A stretch of DNA of 64,000 nt, from NCBI GenBank assembly GCA_902826035.1, contig CADEDG010000001.1:38305-102304 (forward strand). The letters are read 5' to 3'. The stretch is from an uncultured Alphaproteobacteria bacterium (GTDB lineage: Bacteria > Pseudomonadota > Alphaproteobacteria > Caulobacterales > Aquidulcibacteraceae). The translations under genes were made by a program, and so were the position numbers. Below, piece after piece: positions 17,431 to 54,478 of the stretch (its first letter is position 1; the number at the start of each line of letters is the position of its first letter). The notes below the pieces were generated by a model. It searched no databases and was not told the DNA's origin. It was given only the letters and a program-made list of their open reading frames with translations.

Positions 17431-17454
17431 ATACGCACGAATACGCCGGAACCC
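17431..17454 (-). promoter_or_regulatory. Putative autoregulatory ECF promoter of the cnrY-X-H-like operon
   Basis: Minus strand (A)GGGTTCCGGCGTATTCGTGCGTAT. Confidence 0.8.
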
Positions 17455-23127: not shown

Positions 23128-23317
23128 GCACGCCGTGCACTGCGCGAGCTCCGACCATCGCGGCGTGTGCAAGGGTGTCAGGCGCGCTTCGTCATTCTGT
23201 GACGAATAGATTTGCCCTCGCTCGGGCGGGGTAGGCACAAATACTGCTTCAGGAAACGCACCGGACCTTACGTTCAGTTTGTGTGCCAACCATCCCGGAA
23301 ACTCGTTTAGAGGGCGT

Positions 23318-24538
23318 ATGTCGCGCGAGAATTATATCTTCACCAGCGAGAGCGTGTCAGAGGGCCACCCGGATAAGGTGGCCGACCGCATCTCCGACAC
23401 CGTCGTGGACGCGTTCATCGAGGCCGATCCCGAAGCCCGCGTCGCCTGCGAAACCATGGTCACCACTAACCGCATCATCCTCGCCGGTGAAGTGCGGGCC
23501 GGGAAGCCGGGCAATGACAAGGCCGCCAACAAGGCCTTCACTAAGGACATCATCGCGTCGCTGCAGCCGAAGGTCCGCACGGCGGTGAAGGACATCGGCT
23601 ACGAGCAAAAGGGCTTTCACTGGGAGAAGGCGCGCTTCGCCAACTATCTGCATGGCCAGTCGGCGCACATCGCCCAAGGCGTCGATGCGTCGGCGAAGAA
23701 GGATGAAGGCGCCGGCGACCAGGGCATCATGTTCGGCTACGCCTGCGAGGAAACGCCGGAGCTGATGCCGGCGACGCTGCAATACTCGCACAACATTTTG
23801 AAGCGTCTCGCCGAAGTGCGCCACAGCGGCGAACGCCCGGAACTAGAGCCGGACGCGAAAAGCCAAGTCACGCTACGTTACGAAAACGGCAAGCCCGTCG
23901 AGGTCGTCGCCATCGTCGTCAGCCACCAGCACAAGAAAAAACTGGGCGAGAAGAGCTACAGCCAGTCGCGCTTTGCCGAACTCGTAAAGCCGATCGCCGC
24001 TTCGGTTTTCCCTGAGGGGCTCATCACCAAGAAAACCAAGTGGCACATCAACCCAACCGGCAAGTTCGAGATCGGCGGCCCGGATGGCGATAGTGGTTTG
24101 ACCGGCCGCAAGATCATCGTCGACACTTACGGCGGCGCAGCCCCGCACGGCGGCGGCGCATTCTCTGGCAAAGACCCAACGAAGGTGGACCGCTCTGCCG
24201 CTTATGCCTGCCGCTATCTGGCGAAGAACGTTGTCGCCGCCGGCCTTGCACAGCGCTGCACCATTCAGATCAGCTACGCGATCGGCGTCGCTGTGCCGAC
24301 CAGCTTCTACGTCGATCTCCATGGCGCCGACACGATTGATCCCGCGATTCTCGAAGCGAAATTGCCAGAGTTGATCGGCGGCGCGACTCCACGTTCGATC
24401 CGCAACCATCTGAAGCTCAATCGCCCGATCTATGCGCGCACCGCCGCCTACGGCCATTTCGGCCGTCTGCCCGACAATGAAGGCGGCTTCACTTGGGAAA
24501 ACCTGGATCTCGCCGCTGAGTTGCGGCGCCTTCGCTAA
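23318..24538 (+). CDS. metK: S-adenosylmethionine synthetase
   Basis: [32 protein letters not shown] and GGGAFSGKD. Confidence 0.98.
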
Positions 24539-32145: not shown

Positions 32146-33671
32146 GCGCCGCGCCAACGACCAGGGAGGGCGAACACGCTTCGCATCTTGTGGCCAAGCG
32201 CCTCAAGCTTCTCTCGCAAGACGACGCGATCGTTCTGATGCGCACCGATTGTCACGTCTGCAAGTCCGAAGGGCTGTCCGCGCGCGCTCGCGTGCTCTTG
32301 ACCGCTGGTGATCGGCGCGTGATCGCAACGCTCTACCAGGTCGAGAACGATTGGCTGACTGTCGATGAAGCAGGGTTGTCCGAGGCGGCGTGGAAACGCC
32401 TGGCCGTAGCCGATGGTGAACACATAGCCGTCAGTCATGCGCCGCCGCTTGACTCGCTTGCTGACGTGCGACGGCGCATGTATGGCGGCCGCCTCGATCA
32501 GCGCGCGTTCCGCTCTATCATCGGCGACATCGCCGGTGGTCGCTATGTCGACATTCATCTCGCCACGTTTATCGCGGCGTGCTCGGCCTTTCCGCTCGAT
32601 CTCGATGAAATCACCTCGCTCACGCGCGCCATGGTCGAAGTGGGCGAGCGTCTCTCCTGGCCTTCGGTGATGGTGGTCGACAAACATTGCGTGGGCGGCC
32701 TTCCTGGCAATCGCACCACGCCAATCGTGGTCGCTATCGTCGCGAGCTTGGGGCTCCTCATGCCCAAGACTTCTTCGCGCGCGATCACCTCGCCGTCGGG
32801 CACGGCCGACACAATGGAGACGTTGGCGCCCGTCGATCTCGATATTGCCGCCATGCGCCGCGTCGTCGAGGCCGAAGGCGGCTGCATCGCCTGGGGCGGC
32901 GCCGTGCGCCTCTCGCCAGCCGATGACGTGCTCATCCGCATCGAGCGCGCGCTTGATATCGACACCGAAGGTCAGCTCATCGCCTCGGTCCTGTCCAAAA
33001 AAATCGCCGCGGGCGCCAGTCACGTCGTGCTCGATCTGCCTGTGGGGCTCACAGCGAAGATCCGTACGCAGGAGGCGGCGCGCGATCTGAGCGCGCACAT
33101 GACCGCCGTCGCCGAGGCGTTTGGTCTTAAGACACGCTTTGTATTGAGCGATGGCGCGCAGCCCGTTGGACGCGGCATCGGGCCGGCGCTCGAAGCCAAC
33201 GACGTGCTCGCCGTGCTTGTCGGCGCTGCCGATGCGCCAACAGACTTGCGCGAGCGGGCGCTCGCGATCGCGGGCGCGGTGCTTGAGCTTTCAGGAACGG
33301 CGCCCAACGGACAAGGGTATGAGTTGGCGCGCGCTGCGCTCGACGACGGGCGCGCTTGGGCGAAGTTTCAAGCCATCTGCGAAGCGCAGGGCGGCATGCG
33401 CACGCCTCCGAGCGCGCCGCTCACGCGCCCATGGGCGGCGGCCCGTTCGGGCATTCTCACCAACATCAACAATCGCAAGATCTCCCGCCTCGCTAAGCTC
33501 GCGGGCGCGCCCGACGATCCCGCCGCCGGAATTGTGTTGCATGTGCGGTTAGGTGACGGCGTCGTCGCCGGAGCCCCGCTTGTGACCGTGCACGCCCAAG
33601 CACCTGGGCAACTCGCCTATGCGCTCGACTATGCGGCGGCCAACCCAGACATATTCGAAATCGAGGCTTGA
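32142..33671 (+). CDS. AMP/thymidine phosphorylase family protein (long, archaeal AMP-phosphorylase-like form)
   Basis: N-terminal CHVC domain; DKHCVGGLPGNRTT, KTSSRAITSPSGTAD and SKKIAAG. Confidence 0.9.
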   Translation: MSAAPTTREGEHASHLVAKRLKLLSQDDAIVLMRTDCHVCKSEGLSARARVLLTAGDRRVIATLYQVENDWLTVDEAGLSEAAWKRLAVADGEHIAVSHAPPLDSLADVRRRMYGGRLDQRAFRSIIGDIAGGRYVDIHLATFIAACSAFPLDLDEITSLTRAMVEVGERLSWPSVMVVDKHCVGGLPGNRTTPIVVAIVASLGLLMPKTSSRAITSPSGTADTMETLAPVDLDIAAMRRVVEAEGGCIAWGGAVRLSPADDVLIRIERALDIDTEGQLIASVLSKKIAAGASHVVLDLPVGLTAKIRTQEAARDLSAHMTAVAEAFGLKTRFVLSDGAQPVGRGIGPALEANDVLAVLVGAADAPTDLRERALAIAGAVLELSGTAPNGQGYELARAALDDGRAWAKFQAICEAQGGMRTPPSAPLTRPWAAARSGILTNINNRKISRLAKLAGAPDDPAAGIVLHVRLGDGVVAGAPLVTVHAQAPGQLAYALDYAAANPDIFEIEA

Positions 33672-34540
33672 ACGTGACGCGCCTTTACCTCCCCATGCCC
33701 GGAAACGAGACCATCGCCCGTGCGCTTGCTCTCTCGGCCGGCGCCGAACTCGGCGCGATCGAGACGCGCCGCTTTCCCGATGGCGAAGCCTATGTTCGGC
33801 TTCTCTCGGCGGTCGAGGGCCGCGAGGTTGAGATTGTCTGCACGCTAGCGCGGCCGGACGAGCAGTTTCTGAGCCTTATCTTCGCCGCCGAAACTGCGCG
33901 CGAGATGGGCGCGGCGCGCGTCAATCTCATCGCGCCTTATTTAGCCTACATGCGCCAGGACAAAAGGTTCAAGGACGGCGAGGCGATTTCCTCAGCGCAT
34001 TTCGCCCGCCTGCTGTCGCAATCGTTCGACGGGCTCATCACCGTCGATCCGCATCTGCATCGCCGCCGCGATTTGGGCGAAATCTTCACCATCGCCACGC
34101 GCGTAGAGCATGCAGCGCCCCTCCTTGCCGATTGGATCAAAGACAATGTGAGCGACCCCCTCGTGGTAGGCCCCGATGCGGAGAGCGAGCAGTGGGTTGC
34201 AGCGGTGGCCGGGCGGGCCGGCGCGCCGCACATCGTCTCGAACAAAACCCGCCGCGGCGACCGCGACGTGAGCATTGACCTGCCTGATCTGTCCGCTCTA
34301 CGCGGAAGGCGTGCCGTTCTTGTCGACGACATTGTCTCCTCGGGGCGCACCATGATCGAGACTGCGCGCAAGTTGGCCGCAGCTGGCATGGCCAAGCCGG
34401 TTTGTGTCGCCGTGCATGCGCTCTTTGCGGATCAATCCTACGCCGAGCTCTTGAGCCTGTGCGAGCGCGTCGTTTCGACAGACACCGTGCCGCATGCTTC
34501 GAACGCCATTAGCGTAGCGGCGCTGCTGGCGCCGGCGTGA
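33668..34540 (+). CDS. prs: Ribose-phosphate pyrophosphokinase family protein
   Basis: RFPDGEAYVR, PYLAYMRQD, VGPDAES and LVDDIVSSGRT. Confidence 0.92.
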   Translation: MNVTRLYLPMPGNETIARALALSAGAELGAIETRRFPDGEAYVRLLSAVEGREVEIVCTLARPDEQFLSLIFAAETAREMGAARVNLIAPYLAYMRQDKRFKDGEAISSAHFARLLSQSFDGLITVDPHLHRRRDLGEIFTIATRVEHAAPLLADWIKDNVSDPLVVGPDAESEQWVAAVAGRAGAPHIVSNKTRRGDRDVSIDLPDLSALRGRRAVLVDDIVSSGRTMIETARKLAAAGMAKPVCVAVHALFADQSYAELLSLCERVVSTDTVPHASNAISVAALLAPA

Positions 34541-37583: not shown

Positions 37584-38591
37584 CTAAGGCGCGACGACGA
37601 CGTTCTGCGGCGTTCCTCGCGCAAATGCCTCGATGTTGGCGAGCGTTGTATCGATGATGCGCGCGATTGCCTCTGTCGTATTGTAGGCGTTGTGCGGCGT
37701 CACCAGCACGTTGGGAAATCGAAGCAGAACGTGGTTGGCGACGAGCGCTTTGAGGTCGATGCTGCTCTCGGAATCCGCGCGAAAGATTTCGGCCTCCTCG
37801 CGCAACTGCGGCTCCCGCGGCAGCACGTCGAGGCCTGCGCCCGCGAGGCGCCCCTCGGCGAGGGCGCGCACCAGCGCCTCCACGTCGACCACAGAGCCCC
37901 GGGCGGTGTTGAGGAGCACGGCGCCCGGCTTCATCAGCGCAAGCTCCCGTTCGGAAACGAGGCCTTGCGTTTGCGGCGTTGCCGGAACGTGCAAGGTGAC
38001 GATGTCGGCCTCGGCGAGGGCAGCGTCGAGGGAAGCATAACGAAAGCCGAGGCGCCGCGCGGCCGTTTCGTCCGGCCGGTCGTCGACCGCGATGACATGC
38101 ATGGCAAAGCCCTGAGCGATTTCAATCACACGCATGCCAATGCGCCCTGCGCCGATGACGGCGATGGTCTTGTCTTTGAGTTCAAAGCCGCGAAGGCCCG
38201 CCTGATCGAATCGGCCGCGCCGGGTGCGCTCGGCGGCGTCAGCGATCTTGCGTGCAAGTCCCAGCAGCAGCGCAAACACATGCTCGGCCACGGTGGAGTC
38301 GCCGTAGCCCGGCACGTTGCAAACAATGATCCCACGGCTTTGGCAGTAGCCAAGGTCGATGTGGTCATAGCCGGTGGAGCGCGTGGCGATAAGCTTGAGG
38401 TGGGCAAAGCGGCTCAGCACGCGCGCGTCGAGCCGTGAATAGACGAAAGGCGATACAATCTCGGCGCCGGCATGGTCGCTGGCGGCGGATTCATTGACTA
38501 TGCCGCGTGTGCAAGACACTTCATGCGCTGGCGTCAACCGCAAGCAGGCCTCATGCTCCCACTGCTCGGCTTCGAAGACAGCGATCTTCAT
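37584..38591 (-). CDS. D-isomer-specific 2-hydroxyacid dehydrogenase (D-lactate dehydrogenase-like)
   Basis: RSTGYDHID, VAEH, GAGRIG, LLNTARG, GLDVLPRE and VTPHNAY. Confidence 0.92.
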   Translation of the reverse strand: MKIAVFEAEQWEHEACLRLTPAHEVSCTRGIVNESAASDHAGAEIVSPFVYSRLDARVLSRFAHLKLIATRSTGYDHIDLGYCQSRGIIVCNVPGYGDSTVAEHVFALLLGLARKIADAAERTRRGRFDQAGLRGFELKDKTIAVIGAGRIGMRVIEIAQGFAMHVIAVDDRPDETAARRLGFRYASLDAALAEADIVTLHVPATPQTQGLVSERELALMKPGAVLLNTARGSVVDVEALVRALAEGRLAGAGLDVLPREPQLREEAEIFRADSESSIDLKALVANHVLLRFPNVLVTPHNAYNTTEAIARIIDTTLANIEAFARGTPQNVVVAP

Positions 38592-47390: not shown

Positions 47391-48071
47391 TTAGGACGTC
47401 GAGGCGAGGTTGCGCGGCGCCCTCGCGCGCCCGCCCAGGAAGCGGGGGAGGAAAGCCGGCGTGCGCGCCGCATAGGCCCGCCATTGCTCGCCGAATTGCG
47501 CTTCGGCGTCGCGCTCCTCGCTCCTGGCGAGGCGCAAATACATAAACACCAACACCGGAAACATAAGCGCCGTCAGTATCGTCGGCCATTGCACGAGAAA
47601 GCCAACCATCACCAGGATGAAAGCGAGATACTGGGGATGGCGGATCGACTTATAGGGTCCCTCGACCGCAAGCGCGCCAGCCGCCTGGGCGCGATGCAGC
47701 ACCGTCCAGGATTCCACCAGCAGCCACAGACCGCCGACAATGAGTGCATCGCTCAGCCAGTGAATTGGCGTGAAATGCGGATCGCCGCGCCAGCCCAACA
47801 ATGTAGGCCAGAAATGGCCCCCATTGTGCGTAAGGATGTCGGCGCCCGGCGCAAAGCTCTGGAGCCAGGGGGCGAGCAAGTAAAGGGTGAGCGGGAAGCC
47901 GTACATTTCAGTGAAAAGCGCGATGATGAAGGCCGAAAAAGCGCCGAAGCTGCGCCAATCGCGCGATGATCGCGGCTTTGCAAAACTCAGCGCGAACACG
48001 ATGAAGAATACGGAATTGACGAAGGCGAGCAGCCAGAGGCCGTAGCCCGAGAAGGCGCCATGGTCAGTCAT
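47391..48071 (-). CDS. Isoprenylcysteine carboxylmethyltransferase (ICMT/PEMT)-family membrane protein
   Basis: FTEMYGFPLT, GPYKSIRHPQY and EERDAEAQFG. Confidence 0.88.
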   Translation of the reverse strand: MTDHGAFSGYGLWLLAFVNSVFFIVFALSFAKPRSSRDWRSFGAFSAFIIALFTEMYGFPLTLYLLAPWLQSFAPGADILTHNGGHFWPTLLGWRGDPHFTPIHWLSDALIVGGLWLLVESWTVLHRAQAAGALAVEGPYKSIRHPQYLAFILVMVGFLVQWPTILTALMFPVLVFMYLRLARSEERDAEAQFGEQWRAYAARTPAFLPRFLGGRARAPRNLASTS

Positions 48072-48339
48072 TGGCCGCTCCATTGTCACGCTGTTGCGCT
48101 TGACCATGGCTGCCATGTCCGCCGTGACCGCCATGCATGAAGATGTGCATCAGCGGGCAGGCGAGCAGGATGAGAAGCGGCCAAGCCGCCAGCAGATGCG
48201 CGCCGTGTTCGGCGATGACATAATAAGCGCCTACGCCGAGCAAGGCGAACATAAGCACGCGGACCAGCCAAGACGCGCGGGGACGCGGACTCGCGGGGGG
48301 CGCGGGTGAGGTGGGTTCGTGATGGGCGTGCATGCTCAT
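48064..48339 (-). CDS. DUF2933 His-rich membrane protein
   Basis: EHGAHLL..LLACPLMHIFMHGGHGGHG. Confidence 0.9.
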   Translation of the reverse strand: MSMHAHHEPTSPAPPASPRPRASWLVRVLMFALLGVGAYYVIAEHGAHLLAAWPLLILLACPLMHIFMHGGHGGHGSHGQAQQRDNGAAND

Positions 48340-48445: not shown

Positions 48446-48469
48446 ATACGCGGCCCGAGGCGGGTTCCC
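48446..48469 (-). promoter_or_regulatory. Putative ECF promoter of the DUF2933-ICMT-HlyD-rbbA-yhhJ operon
   Basis: Minus strand (A)GGGAACCCGCCTCGGGCCGCGTAT. Confidence 0.78.
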
Positions 48470-48508: not shown

Positions 48509-48532
48509 GGGCGAGCGCCGTCAGGCGCGTAT
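48509..48532 (+). promoter_or_regulatory. Putative ECF promoter of the DUF5676-GAPDH-ATPase operon
   Basis: (A)GGGCGAGCGCCGTCAGGCGCGTAT. Confidence 0.78.
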
Positions 48533-48590
48533 TAGAATGGAGCGCGCCCGACCGGGGCTTTTGTGTTCGCTTGGCAGAAGGAAGAGAAAC

Positions 48591-48881
48591 ATGGCTCAGC
48601 AACCAAGCGCTGAACGAAGCGCAGGGATCGGCGTTCTACCGTTGGGCATTGCGTTGGCGGTGACGCTGCTCGCAGCCTACGGGGCATGCTGGCTGGTTGC
48701 GGCCTCGCCCTATGCTGCGCCGTTCGCGCACGCTTGGCTGCAATTGTTCTCGGCCGAGCCCGAAGGCTCAATCGCGCAACTGATTGAGGGCGCGATCTTC
48801 AGCGCCGTCGCCGCCTGGTTCGCCGCCCTCATCTTCGCGCCTGTCTATAACTTGGTCGCCCGCGCCGATCGCATTATTTGA
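48591..48881 (+). CDS. DUF5676-like membrane protein (second paralog)
   Basis: HAWLQLFS..AWFAALIFAPVYN, similar to 38713..39030. Confidence 0.7.
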   Translation: MAQQPSAERSAGIGVLPLGIALAVTLLAAYGACWLVAASPYAAPFAHAWLQLFSAEPEGSIAQLIEGAIFSAVAAWFAALIFAPVYNLVARADRII

Positions 48882-48909
48882 CGCGCTCGTTTCGCGAAGT
48901 GAGGAAGTC

Positions 48910-49902
48910 ATGACGATACGGGTAGGCGTCAACGGCTATGGCGTCATCGGCAAGCGCGTCGCCGACGCGGTCAGGCTGCAAACCGACATGGAGCTTGTCG
49001 GCGTCTGCGACATCGCCGACGATTGGCGCATTGGCGTCGTACGCGATCAGGGCGTCCCGATCTATTCTCCCTCCGGCGCAGCAAGAGCAGGATCGCTTGA
49101 GGATATGGCGGCCGGCGCCGATCTGGTGGTCGACTGCACCCCCAAGGGCGTCGCCGCCAAGAACGCCGTGCTCTATCGCAAGCTGGGCGTCAAATTCATC
49201 GTCCAGGGCGGTGAAAAGCATGAAGTCACAGGCCATTCCTTTGTCGCCGATGCGACCTATGCGAGCGCTCTCAACCGGCCCTCGACGCGTGTTGTGTCGT
49301 GCAACACGACTTCGATTGTGCGCGTCTTCGGCGCGCTGCGGCGCGCTGGTTTGCTGCGGCGCGCACGCGGGACTTTGCTCCGCCGTGCGCTCGATCCATG
49401 GGAGAGCCATCTTGGCGGGATCATGAACACGCTTGTCCCGGAGGCGCACGTTCCAAGCCATCAAGGTCCGGACGCCCAAACCGTCGACCCCGCGCTCGAT
49501 CTCGTCACCATGGCGGTCAAGGTGCCTGAAACGCTTGGACACATGCATTTCTGGTCCGCCGATCTTACCGGCGATCCCACGCGCGACGAGGTGCGCGCCG
49601 TGCTCTCCGCCTCGCCGCGCATCGCCTTCGTGCGCGAGAGCGAGGGCCTTGGCGCGCTTAACGCGGTCAAGGAGCGCATGCTCGATCTTGGCCGGCCCCG
49701 TGGCGACCTTTATGAAGTCGCGATCCTGGAGGAGACGCTGACGGTGGCGAATGGCGAACTCTTCTGCGCCTATATGGTCGACAATCAGGCGATTGTAATT
49801 CCAGAAACCATCGACGCTGTTCGCGCTCTTATGGGCAGGGAGCAGGAGGCGGCGGTCTCAATGCGCATGACCAATCAGGCGCTCGCCATCGCCGCCCGAT
49901 GA
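48910..49902 (+). CDS. Type II (archaeal-type) phosphorylating GAPDH
   Basis: NGYGVIGKRVADAV, FIVQGGEK, VVSCNTT, SHQGPDA and VDNQAIVIPETIDA. Confidence 0.9.
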   Translation: MTIRVGVNGYGVIGKRVADAVRLQTDMELVGVCDIADDWRIGVVRDQGVPIYSPSGAARAGSLEDMAAGADLVVDCTPKGVAAKNAVLYRKLGVKFIVQGGEKHEVTGHSFVADATYASALNRPSTRVVSCNTTSIVRVFGALRRAGLLRRARGTLLRRALDPWESHLGGIMNTLVPEAHVPSHQGPDAQTVDPALDLVTMAVKVPETLGHMHFWSADLTGDPTRDEVRAVLSASPRIAFVRESEGLGALNAVKERMLDLGRPRGDLYEVAILEETLTVANGELFCAYMVDNQAIVIPETIDAVRALMGREQEAAVSMRMTNQALAIAAR

Positions 49903-49927
49903 ACCGCCGCGGCGGGGAAGAAGAACT

Positions 49928-52210
49928 ATGCAGACCGAAACACTGACCTTCGACGATCTCGTCACGCCGCTCGATCCGCTCGTGCTGGAGCGCCATCTAA
50001 AGCACACCCCCGGCGTCGCCGACGCAACGGCTAATTTTGCATCGGGATCCGTTACGGTCACGTTCGATCCGGCCGAAACTGATGTAGACCGGGTGCGTGC
50101 GGCTGTGAGCGCTTGCGGGTTTCACTGCCGCGGCGTGTCGGCTCCCCAGCATGTGGGTTCGCGTGAGCACGAGGCTCACACGCACAAGACCGCACCGGCG
50201 CCCTCCGAGCGCGGTCATCAGGGCGCGAGCGATGTCGGACACGAGATGGGTCATGGCGGGGGCATGGGCATGGCCGCCATGGCGAAGGATATGCGCAATC
50301 GCTTTCTGGTCGCGCTCGGCTTTTCCATTCCGATCTTCCTGTTGGCGCCGATGGGCATGGAAGCCATGCGCATCGATCCGCCATTCGGGTGGGATCTTGA
50401 AGTTACGCTTTTCTTTCTGGCGAGCGGGGCGATCCTCTATCCAGGTTGGCCGTTCTTTGTCGCCGCCGTGCGCGCGCTGCGTCGCGGCGTCTTCAACATG
50501 GCCGTGCTGGTGCTGTTAAGCGTTGGCGCCGGCTATTTCTTCTCAATTGGCGCCACTTTTGTCTGGGGCGGCGCGCAATTCTACGAAGCATCTTCGGTGC
50601 TCTTGGTGTTCATCCTGCTGGGGCACTGGCTGGAGATGCGCGCCAGAGCCGGCGCGTCAGAAGCCATACGGCGGCTCATGGATCTGGCGCCGCCGATGGC
50701 TATCGTCGTGCGCGACGGCCAGGAGGTCTTGGTCTCAACGGCCGAGGTGAAGATCGAGGATATCGTCGTGGTGAAACCGGGCGGCAAAGCCCCAGTCGAT
50801 GGCGTCATCATCGAAGGGCGCTCCGACATCGATGAATCCATGCTCACCGGCGAATCGTTGCCAGTGAGCAAGACAATTGGGGACGCCGTCATTGGCGGCA
50901 CCATCAACAAAAGCGGCATGATCCGTTATCGCGCCACCAAAATCGGCGCCGACACAGCTTTGGCGCAGATCGTCAAGCTGGTGCAGGAAGCACAGAACTC
51001 CAAGGCGCCAGCCCAATTGCTCGCCGATCGCGCCTCGCAGTGGCTGGTGATCGCCGCCATCGTCATAGCCGTCGCCACTTTCGTCGCCTGGCTGGCGCTT
51101 GGTCAGCCGCTCCTTTTCGCGCTTACGTTGGCGATCACAGTCTTGGTCATCGCCTGTCCGGACGCGCTTGGCCTTGCGACGCCGATGGCGATCATGGTCG
51201 GCACCGGCATTGGCGCGCGCCATGGCATCCTTATCAAAGACGCGGTTGCATTGGAGGATTCCGCCAAGCTCGACGTGGTTGTGTTTGACAAAACCGGCAC
51301 GCTGACCCTGGGCGCTCCGAAAGTGGTTGAGGTCGTTGCAAGCGAAGGGCTGAGCGAAAACGACCTTGTCGCACTGGCGGCCGCAGTCGAGAGCGGTTCC
51401 GAGCACCATATCGCCGTCGCCCTCAAGGAACGCGCCAAGGGTCTGACGTTGCCAGAAGTCTCTGACTTCGCCTCGTTCGAAGGCAAAGGCGTCAGCGGCG
51501 GTATCGGCGGCGCCAAAATTCTTTCAGGCAACCGCATGCTCATGGCCGACAACCAGGTGGCGTTCGGCGCGCTCGCCGACGAGGCCGATCGTCTCTTGGG
51601 ATCCGGCCGCACCGTTGCGCACATAGCTCGCGATGGCCAATTGATCGGCCTCATCGCGATCGCTGACGCCGCGCGCCCGACGGCGGCCGCGACTGTCGAG
51701 CGCCTCAAGCGCCAAGGCGTCGAGGTCGCGATGATGACCGGCGACAATCTCGCCACGGCGCGGCGCATCGCGGGCGAACTCGGCGTCGATATCGTGCTTG
51801 CGGAAGTCCTGCCGGGGCAGAAGGCGGACAAGATCAAAGAGCTGCAGGCGCAGGGCAAGAAGGTTGGCATGGTTGGCGATGGCGTCAATGATGCGCCGGC
51901 GCTGACCCAGGCCGATGTGGGGTTCGCCATTGGCGCAGGCACAGACGTCGCCATGGAGAGCGCCGACGTCGTGCTCATGCGCAGCGATCCTTACGATGTC
52001 GTGCGCGCGATCGATCTGTCGCGCGCCACGTTGCGCAAGATGCATCAAAATCTTTGGTGGGCGGCGGGCTACAATGTGCTCGCGTTCCCGTTGGCGGCGG
52101 GCGTGCTCTACCCGCTGCTGCTCAGCCCCGAGATCGCGGCGCTGTCGATGTCGGGCAGCTCAGTGATCGTGGCGGCCAACGCGCTCTTGCTGCGCTGGGA
52201 GAAGCTCTGA
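49928..52210 (+). CDS. Copper-type P1B ATPase with CPD motif (P1B-3-like)
   Basis: HMA-like N-terminus and His/Met linker; LLGHWLEM, ACPDALGLATP, DKTGTLT, YN and MSGSS. Confidence 0.93.
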   Translation: MQTETLTFDDLVTPLDPLVLERHLKHTPGVADATANFASGSVTVTFDPAETDVDRVRAAVSACGFHCRGVSAPQHVGSREHEAHTHKTAPAPSERGHQGASDVGHEMGHGGGMGMAAMAKDMRNRFLVALGFSIPIFLLAPMGMEAMRIDPPFGWDLEVTLFFLASGAILYPGWPFFVAAVRALRRGVFNMAVLVLLSVGAGYFFSIGATFVWGGAQFYEASSVLLVFILLGHWLEMRARAGASEAIRRLMDLAPPMAIVVRDGQEVLVSTAEVKIEDIVVVKPGGKAPVDGVIIEGRSDIDESMLTGESLPVSKTIGDAVIGGTINKSGMIRYRATKIGADTALAQIVKLVQEAQNSKAPAQLLADRASQWLVIAAIVIAVATFVAWLALGQPLLFALTLAITVLVIACPDALGLATPMAIMVGTGIGARHGILIKDAVALEDSAKLDVVVFDKTGTLTLGAPKVVEVVASEGLSENDLVALAAAVESGSEHHIAVALKERAKGLTLPEVSDFASFEGKGVSGGIGGAKILSGNRMLMADNQVAFGALADEADRLLGSGRTVAHIARDGQLIGLIAIADAARPTAAATVERLKRQGVEVAMMTGDNLATARRIAGELGVDIVLAEVLPGQKADKIKELQAQGKKVGMVGDGVNDAPALTQADVGFAIGAGTDVAMESADVVLMRSDPYDVVRAIDLSRATLRKMHQNLWWAAGYNVLAFPLAAGVLYPLLLSPEIAALSMSGSSVIVAANALLLRWEKL

Positions 52211-52286: not shown

Positions 52287-52511
52287 ATGAAACTCCTGGC
52301 AATCGCGGCGGTCGGCGTTCTCGCTCTAGCGCTCGGCGCCTGCTCGCATATGGGCCAAGGCATGCATCCGATGCACGAAGGCGGAAGGATGGACGGCCAT
52401 CGGACGCAGGAGCGCGCCTGTCCCGCGGACCACGCTGGCGATCCGGCCAGCGCGCACGAGCACGCCGAGGGTGCGGAAAATGAGCGTCCAGCTCCAGCGC
52501 AACCGCAATAG
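52287..52511 (+). CDS. Small His/Met-rich lipoprotein
   Basis: GGAGG RBS; lipobox LGAC; SHMGQGMHPMHEGGRMDGH; ends PAQPQ. Confidence 0.75.
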   Translation: MKLLAIAAVGVLALALGACSHMGQGMHPMHEGGRMDGHRTQERACPADHAGDPASAHEHAEGAENERPAPAQPQ

Positions 52512-52591
52512 CGCCCACTTGCGCAGCGCGCGCTGAACTGCGCCGCTCGCAAGGCATGAGCCTCGAGAGCGGCGCGGGGACGCAAATTAGG

Positions 52592-52876
52592 TTATTGCGG
52601 TTGCGCGGGGGCCTCGGTTGGCGCGGCCTGCGTATCCGTTTGCTGTTCACGGCAACCCGGATGGGCCGCGGTCGGCATACGACTGTTGTCATGTGGCCGA
52701 TTCATATCGTGGCTTGCCGTATCATAGGGGCAGTCCGTCGGTTCGGCAGGCATGGCGGAGTCGCGCATCGTCTCGCGCGGCCCATGATGATGCCTATCCG
52801 CTGGCGCCGTGCATGCGCCAAGCGCCAACAGCCCGCCAGCGGACGCGGCGCAAACAATGCCCTTCAACACGTTCAT
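52592..52876 (-). CDS. Small His/Met/Cys lipoprotein
   Basis: GAGGAG RBS; lipobox LGAC; HHH, CPYD and HPGC; ends PAQPQ. Confidence 0.72.
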   Translation of the reverse strand: MNVLKGIVCAASAGGLLALGACTAPADRHHHGPRETMRDSAMPAEPTDCPYDTASHDMNRPHDNSRMPTAAHPGCREQQTDTQAAPTEAPAQPQ

Positions 52877-52922: not shown

Positions 52923-52946
52923 ATACGCACCGGCGCGCTCTTGCCC
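52923..52946 (-). promoter_or_regulatory. Putative ECF promoter of the 52876 lipoprotein
   Basis: Minus strand (A)GGGCAAGAGCGCGCCGGTGCGTAT. Confidence 0.75.
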
Positions 52947-54454: not shown

Positions 54455-54478
54455 ATACGCACGAGCCCAGCGGTCCCC
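54455..54478 (-). promoter_or_regulatory. Putative ECF promoter with no credible downstream gene
   Basis: Minus strand (A)GGGGACCGCTGGGCTCGTGCGTAT. Confidence 0.7.

Follow-up and report, generated by a model that had tools for sequence, protein, structure and literature searches.

Here we describe a gene cluster in which an archaeal-type glycolytic enzyme is encoded next to a heavy-metal pump, in a metal-resistance island on a 64,000-nucleotide stretch (the window) of contig CADEDG010000001.1 from an uncultured groundwater alphaproteobacterium. Reading the list of open reading frames (ORFs) together with the sequence between 48380 and 50000 confirmed three genes on the same strand: small96, for a small membrane protein; a gene for a glyceraldehyde-3-phosphate dehydrogenase (GAPDH) of type II; and a gene for a P1B ATPase. 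The spacers measure exactly 28 bp between small96 and the GAPDH gene and 25 bp between the GAPDH and ATPase genes, and the trio, its two gaps, and a motif promoter at 48509 are all as the first-pass annotation of this stretch had described them. Both spacers contain ribosome-binding sites, with GAGGAAG preceding the GAPDH start codon at 48910, and neither folds better than shuffled sequences (z = 0.75 and 0.22, respectively).

The 76 bp 3' of the ATPase gene also fold no better than shuffles (z = 0.40), and no hairpin precedes the next gene, orf74, which is also present in two of the loci compared below (L010 and L040). A stem-loop of -54.8 kcal/mol, which none of 200 shuffles equaled (z = -4.33), lies 3' of orf74. 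On the plus strand, no additional GGG-N15-GCGTAT promoter motif occurs between 48533 and 52210, and generic sigma-70 promoter and terminator scans of the region from 47.8 to 53.2 kb gave nothing above shuffles. Because the gaps are short and carry ribosome-binding sites, no internal hairpin or motif site interrupts the series, and a hairpin follows orf74, the most economical reading is a single transcription unit, small96-GAPDH-ATPase-orf74, of which orf74 would be the probable fourth gene; we infer co-transcription from this anatomy. The product of orf74 resembles that of the convergent gene orf94, which has its own motif promoter at 52923 (minus strand) and is separated from orf74 by the very stable hairpin: both are His/Met-rich lipoproteins with an APAQPQ end. 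Judging from these features, they are probably periplasmic metal-binding paralogues.

Table 1. Positions of the genes and sequence features discussed in the text (window coordinates unless a locus is named)
Feature	Coordinates	Strand	Basis or remark
small96, 96 aa, two-transmembrane-helix protein, divergent DUF5676	48591..48881	+	hhalign; dN/dS
Type II (archaeal-type) phosphorylating GAPDH, 330 aa	48910..49902	+	NF003251, PDB matches, model fold
P1B ATPase, 760 aa, CopB-like "CPD" subtype	49928..52210	+	Motifs, TIGR01511
orf74, small His/Met-rich lipoprotein	52287..52511	+	Lipobox LGAC; ribosome-binding site GGGAGG; 76 bp after ATPase
Strong stem-loop between convergent orf74 and orf94, probable bidirectional terminator	52503..52600		Folding versus shuffles
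orf94, His/Met-rich lipoprotein	52592..52876	-	Lipobox ALGAC
ECF-type promoter motif GGGCGA-N12-GCGTAT	48509..48532	+	1 of 15 exact GGG-N15-GCGTAT sites; end 59 bp 5' of small96 ATG
Mirrored promoter motif GGGAAC-N12-GCGTAT	48446..48469	-	Serves divergent DUF2933-ICMT-HlyD-ABC operon
DUF2933, small His-rich membrane protein, divergent neighbor	48064..48339	-	PF11666, E = 3.9e-21; called as 91 aa in identical contigs
ICMT/PEMT-family membrane methyltransferase (CzcN-like), frequent companion of type II GAPDH	47391..48134	-	Pfam; 19/80 metagenomic loci
D-2-hydroxyacid dehydrogenase	37584..38591	-	Pfam, NCBIfam; adjoins type II GAPDH in other genomes
Island Prs, second copy	33668..34540		
Island MetK, second copy	23279..24538		
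Class I aldolase on copper-island plasmid (Meiothermus)	L035 651..1535		
Class I aldolase on copper-island plasmid (Corynebacterium)	L039 11153..12037		

An accessory type II GAPDH with a predicted preference for NAD+

The identification of the enzyme as a type II GAPDH is upheld by profiles, catalytic residues, and fold. The protein passes two equivalog hidden Markov models, NF003251 (397.7 bits; cutoff, 185) and TIGR01546 (282.3 bits; cutoff, 232.9), and it can be aligned over its full length with the archaeal type II structures 1CF2, 2CZC, 1B7G, and 2YYY (E values of 1e-60 to 6e-68), its full-length identity to archaeal GAPDHs being 35 to 40% (Foldseek percent identity). No solved structure of a bacterial type II GAPDH was among the structure matches. 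An AlphaFold model of moderate quality (pLDDT 75, pTM 0.80; residues 155 to 184, 201 to 209, and 246 to 267 below pLDDT 50), used for fold assignment alone, gave TM scores of 0.85 to 0.87 to 2CZC, 1CF2, 2YYY, and 1B7G, compared with 0.60 to 0.68 to class I enzymes. Cys131 (in SCNTT) and His211 align to Cys140 and His219 of the M. fervidus enzyme (1CF2) and are invariant in 14 homologues, and the RR pair of archaeal type II GAPDH is retained. With a dN/dS of 0.07 to 0.10, the gene is under strong purifying selection.

The bacterial enzymes nevertheless differ from their archaeal counterparts at two positions of interest. At the end of beta-2, where the cofactor is discriminated, the window's enzyme has Asp34 in place of the Lys33 found in three aligned archaeal enzymes, and Asp occupies this position in all 92 bacterial loci with a readable motif. 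Lys33 of the M. fervidus enzyme is said to have a role in binding the 2'-phosphate of NADP+, as reported by Charron and colleagues in 2000 in the paper on 1CF2. Because Asp34, a classical NAD+ signature, replaces this lysine, we predict the use of NAD+ rather than NADP+; the absence of the NADP+-preferring site is a difference between clades and does not exclude the enzyme from the fold family. A role in NADPH supply is disfavored by the same residue. Second, the sequence PSHQGPD (residues 183 to 188; window positions 49456 to 49473) is invariant in 96 of 96 bacterial loci, where archaea have PSHHGPD or PSHHAKD. In addition, the GAPDH subclade to which the window's enzyme belongs lacks 10 residues of the N-domain. 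As of 2019, functional evidence for a type II GAPDH in bacteria was absent (PMC6543838).

Besides the type II enzyme, the genome that carries the window has a class I GapA whose dithiol active site is SCTTNC (Cys-x3-Cys), whereas the type II enzyme reads SCNTTS and has a single active-site Cys. Phosphoglycerate kinase (PGK), enolase, triosephosphate isomerase (TIM), and pyruvate kinase are single copy in this genome. Since the genome keeps its class I GapA, the type II GAPDH is an accessory extra copy, and the same holds for the four other carrier genomes of the class, all of which encode a class I enzyme (5/5 with the window's genome); to this extent the earlier description of the enzyme as a "backup" is supported. 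The type II enzyme is rare: it was found in 5 species-level genomes among the 401 of the class.

A CPD-type relative of CopB pumps

The P1B ATPase, likewise correctly identified at first pass, has the core motifs of P-type ATPases (DKTGT, TGES, and GDGVNDAP) as well as CPDALGLATP, YN(x)4P, and MSGSS, and it scores 594 bits against TIGR01511, "copper-translocating P-type ATPase" (cutoff, 397); the heavy-metal subfamily model was also passed. Its metal-binding transmembrane helix contains CPD, compared with CPC in CopA and CPH in CopB, and the protein departs from classical CopB (P1B-3) pumps in having CPD instead of CPH and, in the last transmembrane helix, MSGSS instead of MSxST. The HMA-like N-domain (49928 to 50130) is devoid of CxxC, ends in CGFHC, and is followed by a His/Met-rich linker (HEMGHGGG). 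This C-G-[FY]-H-C ending is conserved in CPD pumps (e.g., L019 5078 to 5300 and L023 3704 to 3930), where it may form an alternative metal site.

Among the pumps found next to type II GAPDH genes, CPH pumps are the nearest relatives (about 40 to 46% identity). From sequence alone, Cubillas et al. (2017) described a novel CPD subtype of P1B-3 pumps, their group VIc, with proteins of Xanthobacter, Nitrobacter, and Bradyrhizobium; in its passages on this subtype, that study lists the same CPD, YN(x)4P, and MSGSS motifs and an N terminus without CxxC and with few His residues, and these passages mention no linkage to type II GAPDH (PMC5552934). By its motifs, the window pump belongs to this sequence-defined CPD variant of CopB-like pumps, for which copper would be the transported metal.

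An extracytoplasmic function-type promoter confined to the island

The promoter motif in front of small96 resembles those recognized by extracytoplasmic function (ECF) σ factors, and it is one of 15 exact GGG-N15-GCGTAT sites in the window, compared with 0.44 ± 0.66 in shuffles. The whole 3.14-Mb assembly contains 35 such sites, 15 of them in the 64-kb window and the other 20 spread over 3.07 Mb at about the chance rate. The motif is therefore essentially confined to the 64-kb stretch, and regulon and island coincide. Copies of it also stand 5' of the two CnrY-like anti-σ operons in the window (at 17431 and 26296), as is usual in ECF autoregulation. The over-representation of a shared -35/-10 motif upstream of genes that include the σ/anti-σ operons points to a regulon of a CnrH-like ECF σ factor, and the island's -10 element, CGTAT(A), resembles the CCGTATA element of the CnrH-dependent promoter cnrYp (PMC13492112).

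The plus-strand site equivalent to that at 48509 is kept in 11 of 11 loci from Hyphomonadaceae metagenome-assembled genomes (MAGs), 9 of which also have the mirrored minus-strand site. Beyond these Hyphomonadaceae relatives the motif was not found in loci with a type II GAPDH, and the wiring of the regulon is therefore lineage specific; other lineages have CueR, CopY, CsoR, CopRS, or other ECF σ factors instead.

In a promoter-proximal alignment, 5 of the 15 promoters share a GAGCGCGCC box, which in front of small96 lies at 48540 to 48548 (plus strand), 7 nt 3' of the -10 element. The other four are the minus-strand promoters at 54455, 23104, 48446, and 52923; the distance from the -10 GCGTAT is about 7 to 10 nt, except at 52923, where it is about 19 nt. 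The box could be an operator, a signal in the initial transcribed region, or the beginning of a leader common to these promoters. Rfam matched nothing at the box or in the 5' leader and returned a single tRNA across the whole window, and the leader folds no better than shuffles (z = 0.46). Boxes for FNR/FixK are not enriched in the window (2 sites versus 1.15 expected, none near the operon), and control of the window by low oxygen through these regulators was therefore rejected.

Linkage of type II GAPDH to metal pumps across phyla

In Hyphomonadaceae MAGs (84 to 98% identity), the gene order of the window is kept, with ICMT and DUF2933 genes divergent from small96, GAPDH, and ATPase genes. 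In the Rhodobacterales Tabrizicola and Pseudogemmobacter, a GAPDH that is 64 to 65% identical is encoded downstream of the gene for an orthologous CPD pump (64% identity, with the same VIACPDALGLATP), in a cluster that also contains ICMT, DUF2933, two ECF σ factor genes, and CFA synthase, followed by CopZ, CopA, CueR, DUF305, and Csp.

Farther afield, 35 plasmids of the PLSDB database carry a type II GAPDH gene (54 to 64% identity), in hosts from the Alpha-, Beta-, and Gammaproteobacteria, Bacteroidota, Actinomycetota, and Deinococcota. On Rhodococcus plasmid pRh5Ap-243 the order is phosphoketolase, CPD pump, a gap of 67 bp, type II GAPDH, and CopY/M56. On pCmarinum1 of Corynebacterium marinum it is CopRS, HMA, copper ATPase, DUF305, and type II GAPDH, a group that adjoins genes for class I aldolase, phosphoketolase, multicopper oxidase, CueP, and Csp. 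Agrobacterium plasmid pAtCFBP6623a has three blocks, CsoR, ICMT-GAPDH, and CueR-ATPase-CopZ. On pAK2 of Paracoccus sp. AK26 (L121 7844 to 19008), genes for DUF2933, ICMT, type II GAPDH, a P1B ATPase, Prs, a small ORF, and XFP-like, beta-CASP, and AMP-phosphorylase-like proteins all point in one direction; this array unites two cassettes that lie 15 kb apart in the window. Copper companions of type II GAPDH elsewhere include CopRS, CopZ, multicopper oxidase, CueP, Csp, DUF305, CueR, CsoR, and CopY. Our literature search found no paper linking type II GAPDH to metal resistance; a type II GAPDH has been listed in an accessory element of P. aeruginosa, alongside SoxR/MerR and the relaxase of an integrative and conjugative element (PMC7448275).

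To quantify the linkage, 80 metagenomic loci were added and all loci were collapsed at 90% identity, which left 71 nonredundant loci. A P1B ATPase gene is present in 43 of them and lies within 3 kb in 32, in 25 of these on the same strand. Among the 41 loci whose flanks both extend for 5 kb or more, the pump lies within 5 kb in 23 and within 10 kb in 30. By our own estimate, made from the six P1B loci of the 3.14-Mb genome, chance would place a pump in about 2% of 10-kb spans, so that the linkage is far beyond chance. The transmembrane motif in the 43 loci is CPD in 15, CPH in 15, and CPC in 2 (unread in 11). While order and orientation vary by lineage, the linkage persists, and same-strand spacings are tight in many lineages (e.g., 25, 41, 67, 118, 128, 170, and 186 bp). 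Among 137 ORFs within two genes on either side of the GAPDH gene, E1-E2_ATPase is the most frequent Pfam family (12), followed by HMA (8).

In the tree, the bacterial type II GAPDHs form one clade on a long branch from three archaeal references, with provisional rooting, and phyla are intermixed within it; for example, Meiothermus groups with Corynebacterium, and Pontibacter falls within a metagenomic clade. GAPDH and pump distances covary (Mantel r of 0.33 for all pumps, 0.85 for the CPD type, and 0.71 for the CPH type; reached by none of 2,000 permutations), which indicates a linkage that is both old and stable. Common descent of the hosts could also produce such correlations, which are thus no proof of functional coupling.

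Several other window genes have homologues that recur in the 80 metagenomic loci: ICMT in 19, beta-CASP in 17, ATP-grasp-like and CFA synthase in 15 each, EamA in 14, Cys-rich ECF σ factor, multicopper oxidase, and 2-hydroxyacid dehydrogenase in 12 each, Prs and AMP phosphorylase in 11 each, and XFP-like in 9. The remaining enzymes of lower glycolysis are nearly absent: a single locus of the 71 has PGK and pyruvate kinase, and enolase, TIM, and class I GAPDH are missing from all of them.

small96 and neighboring genes

Direct searches of Pfam and NCBIfam with small96 returned nothing at an E value of 0.01 or better, and against DUF5676 (PF18926), the family to which the first-pass annotation had likened it, it scores 9.4 bits, below the gathering cutoff of 27.6 (E = 2.6). 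The likeness is seen only when profiles are compared: the small96 family profile matches the DUF5676 proteins of other type II GAPDH loci with an hhalign probability of 95.8% (E = 7e-9; 79 columns), and the similarity spans the entire protein with its C-terminal (P)xYN motif (PVYN). The original label thus stands as remote homology and not as a Pfam assignment. The gene has a dN/dS of 0.04 to 0.07, and DUF5676 genes occur in at least 14 other type II GAPDH loci.

Of the divergent neighbors, the ICMT gene is found directly upstream of the type II GAPDH gene on the Agrobacterium and Paracoccus plasmids. The D-2-hydroxyacid dehydrogenase, some distance away in the window, adjoins type II GAPDH in at least 8 other loci (L014, L028, L060, L067, L084, L086, L088, and L092). 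It scores nearly equally on glyoxylate reductase, PGDH, and VanH models and stays under every NCBIfam cutoff, so that specificity for lactate, glyoxylate, or phosphoglycerate is not assignable. The window's "phosphoketolase" is a divergent XFP-family protein (135 bits versus a cutoff of 962). These results bear on a heterolactic-like bypass that had been proposed to join the phosphoketolase, the GAPDH, and the dehydrogenase: the linkage of type II GAPDH to the phosphoketolase-like cassette and to the dehydrogenase does recur, the former with the whole set on pAK2 and the latter in the loci just listed, but the dehydrogenase cannot be named a lactate dehydrogenase, and the supply of glyceraldehyde 3-phosphate (G3P) by the divergent XFP protein is an assumption.

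Replacement of a metal-inhibited enzyme as a possible function

What would a metal-resistance island gain from a second GAPDH? Work on S. aureus (PMC6350627) and S. pyogenes (PMC7733945) has shown the class I GapA to be an enzyme that copper specifically inhibits. The explanation that we favor, and to which we give an even chance of being right, is that the ECF system induces two proteins at once, a CopB-like pump and an NAD+-dependent type II GAPDH, and that the latter replaces metal-inhibited GapA, so that one vulnerable step is bypassed. A periplasmic CnrX-like sensor would report metal excess, upon which the ECF σ factor would activate the island-private promoter. The pump would then lower cytoplasmic metal, and the type II isozyme, which is structurally unrelated to class I, would sustain the conversion of G3P to 1,3-bisphosphoglycerate while Cu(I) or other thiophilic metals inhibit the housekeeping GapA. 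A backup role is suggested because the enzyme is predicted to use NAD+, has one active-site Cys instead of Cys-x3-Cys, and is the sole lower-glycolysis enzyme of the islands. Activity on G3P and a metal sensitivity lower than that of GapA are expectations of this scheme, and copper is its presumed metal.

Several observations weigh against such a role. Type II GAPDH likewise needs a catalytic thiolate, so that tolerance of Cu(I) is not self-evident. The promoter belongs to a CnrYXH-like ECF system, for which metals other than copper could be the inducer, and the island also carries Zn/Cd-type and RND systems. The His-to-Gln change within the conserved PSHHGPD motif is clade wide, and the sole bacterial type II GAPDH that has been assayed, that of P. 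thermosuccinogenes, was inactive with NAD+ or NADP+ (PMC6543838). Moreover, in 28 of the 71 loci a P1B ATPase gene is not within reach, and pump-less type II GAPDH genes are found in clusters of a carbohydrate or low-oxygen type, as in Pseudomonas and in Phenylobacterium, where pyruvate:ferredoxin oxidoreductase (PFOR), alcohol dehydrogenase (ADH), and a universal stress protein (USP) accompany it.

The last of these points leads to the main rival, which is partly compatible with the replacement of GapA but which on its own we consider unlikely. Here, the GAPDH would be part of a mobile set for substrate-level phosphorylation when respiration fails, together with glycogen/trehalose breakdown, a phosphoketolase-like enzyme, acetate kinase, phosphoenolpyruvate synthase/pyruvate phosphate dikinase (PPDK), and the 2-hydroxyacid dehydrogenase, and its value would lie in extra or separately regulated flux and not in metal tolerance. 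The recurrence of type II GAPDH with the XFP-like/beta-CASP/AMP-phosphorylase/Prs cassette (9 to 17 of 80 loci) and with the 2-hydroxyacid dehydrogenase (12 of 80) fits this idea, as do its further companions GlgP, PfkA/PfkB, FBA, PPDK, and AckA, the PFOR-ADH-USP neighborhood on the Phenylobacterium plasmid, and the stringing together of cassette parts on Paracoccus pAK2. However, PGK and pyruvate kinase are each carried by one locus in 71 and enolase and TIM by none, a near absence of lower glycolysis that argues for one vulnerable step rather than for pathway capacity. In addition, a metal pump is the commonest immediate neighbor, and FNR/FixK boxes are not enriched in the window.

Alternatively, the enzyme might act on another phosphorylated aldehyde or acyl phosphate, e.g., erythrose 4-phosphate released by a phosphoketolase that cleaves fructose 6-phosphate; together with the 2-hydroxyacid dehydrogenase it would then feed serine and cysteine synthesis for thiol buffers, or a PdxB-like step. 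The adjacency of the two genes in at least 8 loci, a dehydrogenase that falls below all model cutoffs, the invariant His-to-Gln change in PSHHGPD, and the lack of GAPDH activity in the assayed bacterial enzyme (PMC6543838) could all be read in this way. Set against them are the full-length identity of 35 to 40% to archaeal GAPDHs, the retained Cys, His, and RR pair, and equivalog scores well above cutoff, which make such a different chemistry improbable in our view. We attach a similarly small probability to the idea that the gene is a passenger that hitchhikes on mobile metal islands and plasmids without a functional tie to the pump. Its presence on 35 PLSDB plasmids of five phyla and its heterogeneous contexts are what a passenger would show, but a passenger would not readily account for a linkage that outlives rearrangement across phyla, for the tight same-strand spacing, for the covariation of distances, or for strong purifying selection. 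Finally, a detoxification of the ArsJ kind, in which the GAPDH would make an unstable acyl adduct of an oxyanion such as arsenate for export by a membrane protein, has a formal precedent in the gapdh-arsJ pair, where a GAPDH gene also lies beside an exporter gene in a resistance locus, but it is disfavored by the neighbor tally to the point of being very improbable, since the partner is a cation-type P1B ATPase and not an MFS permease (MFS proteins account for 2 of the 137 neighbor ORFs) and no ars genes are among the recurrent partners.

If a metal-inhibited GapA is indeed what the type II GAPDH replaces, it may not be alone. The pairing of GAPDH and pump across phyla suggests that resistance islands may carry replacement enzymes for copper-poisoned steps. 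Copper also inhibits Prs (PMC10249872). The window's island encodes second copies of Prs and MetK, which are 27% and 85% identical, respectively, to the housekeeping enzymes. The fructose-bisphosphate aldolases that travel with type II GAPDH on the Meiothermus (L035) and Corynebacterium (L039) copper-island plasmids are of the metal-independent class I (DeoC/LacD, PF00274) and not of the Zn-dependent class II. The copper islands of loci L033, L035, L039, and L121 carry extra Lnt/Lgt, CcsB/ResB/CcdA (cytochrome c maturation), M23 peptidase, and L,D-transpeptidase genes, that is, genes for catalytic-thiol enzymes or envelope processes that are copper sensitive. It is tempting to speculate that mobile metal islands practice "target bypass" as a general strategy, providing structurally unrelated, metal-robust replacements for copper-poisoned cytoplasmic enzymes, with the GAPDH having coevolved as the fixed partner of CPD/CPH pumps; we hold this wider view tentatively and think it somewhat less probable than not. 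Candidates would be the NAD+-dependent type II GAPDH for GapA, the divergent Prs, class I for class II aldolase, L,D-transpeptidase, Lnt, and cytochrome c maturation.

Significance and comparison with known systems

The pairing of type II GAPDH and metal pump is well supported as an association, and the mechanism is proposed on the basis of the sequences. Should it prove correct, resistance determinants may include replacement targets besides efflux and sequestration, an idea that is directly testable. This would be relevant to the survival of bacteria exposed to copper as an antimicrobial, in agriculture, or from phagocytes, as well as to the annotation of resistance islands, and the islands could be a source of metal-robust glycolytic enzymes for biotechnology.

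With the archaeal type II GAPDHs of M. fervidus (1CF2), P. horikoshii (2CZC), S. solfataricus (1B7G), and M. jannaschii (2YYY), the window's enzyme shares the full-length fold, the catalytic Cys and His, and the RR pair, whereas the bacterial clade is set apart by its location on plasmids and islands, its long branch, Asp in place of Lys33, and PSHQGPD. The lxa-type low-oxygen-activated islands of Burkholderia and relatives contain phosphoketolase, acetate kinase, USP, dehydrogenases, and cation ATPases, and their gene repertoire overlaps with that described here; the window differs in that it has no FNR/FixK enrichment and has a promoter of the metal-sensor ECF type.

A GAPDH gene in a metal(loid) resistance operon beside a gene for a membrane exporter is also what characterizes the gapdh-arsJ arsenate resistance pair, reportedly described by Chen and colleagues in 2016. 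There, a class I GAPDH makes the exported compound and the exporter is an MFS permease, whereas the window pairs a type II GAPDH with a cation pump, and nothing points to a product of that kind. A different kind of precedent is the replacement of a stress-sensitive enzyme or drug target by a second version, as with SoxRS-induced FumC and AcnA, Zur-regulated metal-independent paralogues, and PBP2a. Our search of the literature found no described case of such replacement that involves copper and GAPDH. The mechanism proposed here would follow the same logic, with a second enzyme that is built differently, is switched on by a stress sensor, and is mobile like drug-insensitive targets. The wider idea of target bypass, if true, would do for metals what target replacement does for antibiotics, and it would assign a first function to type II GAPDH in bacteria.

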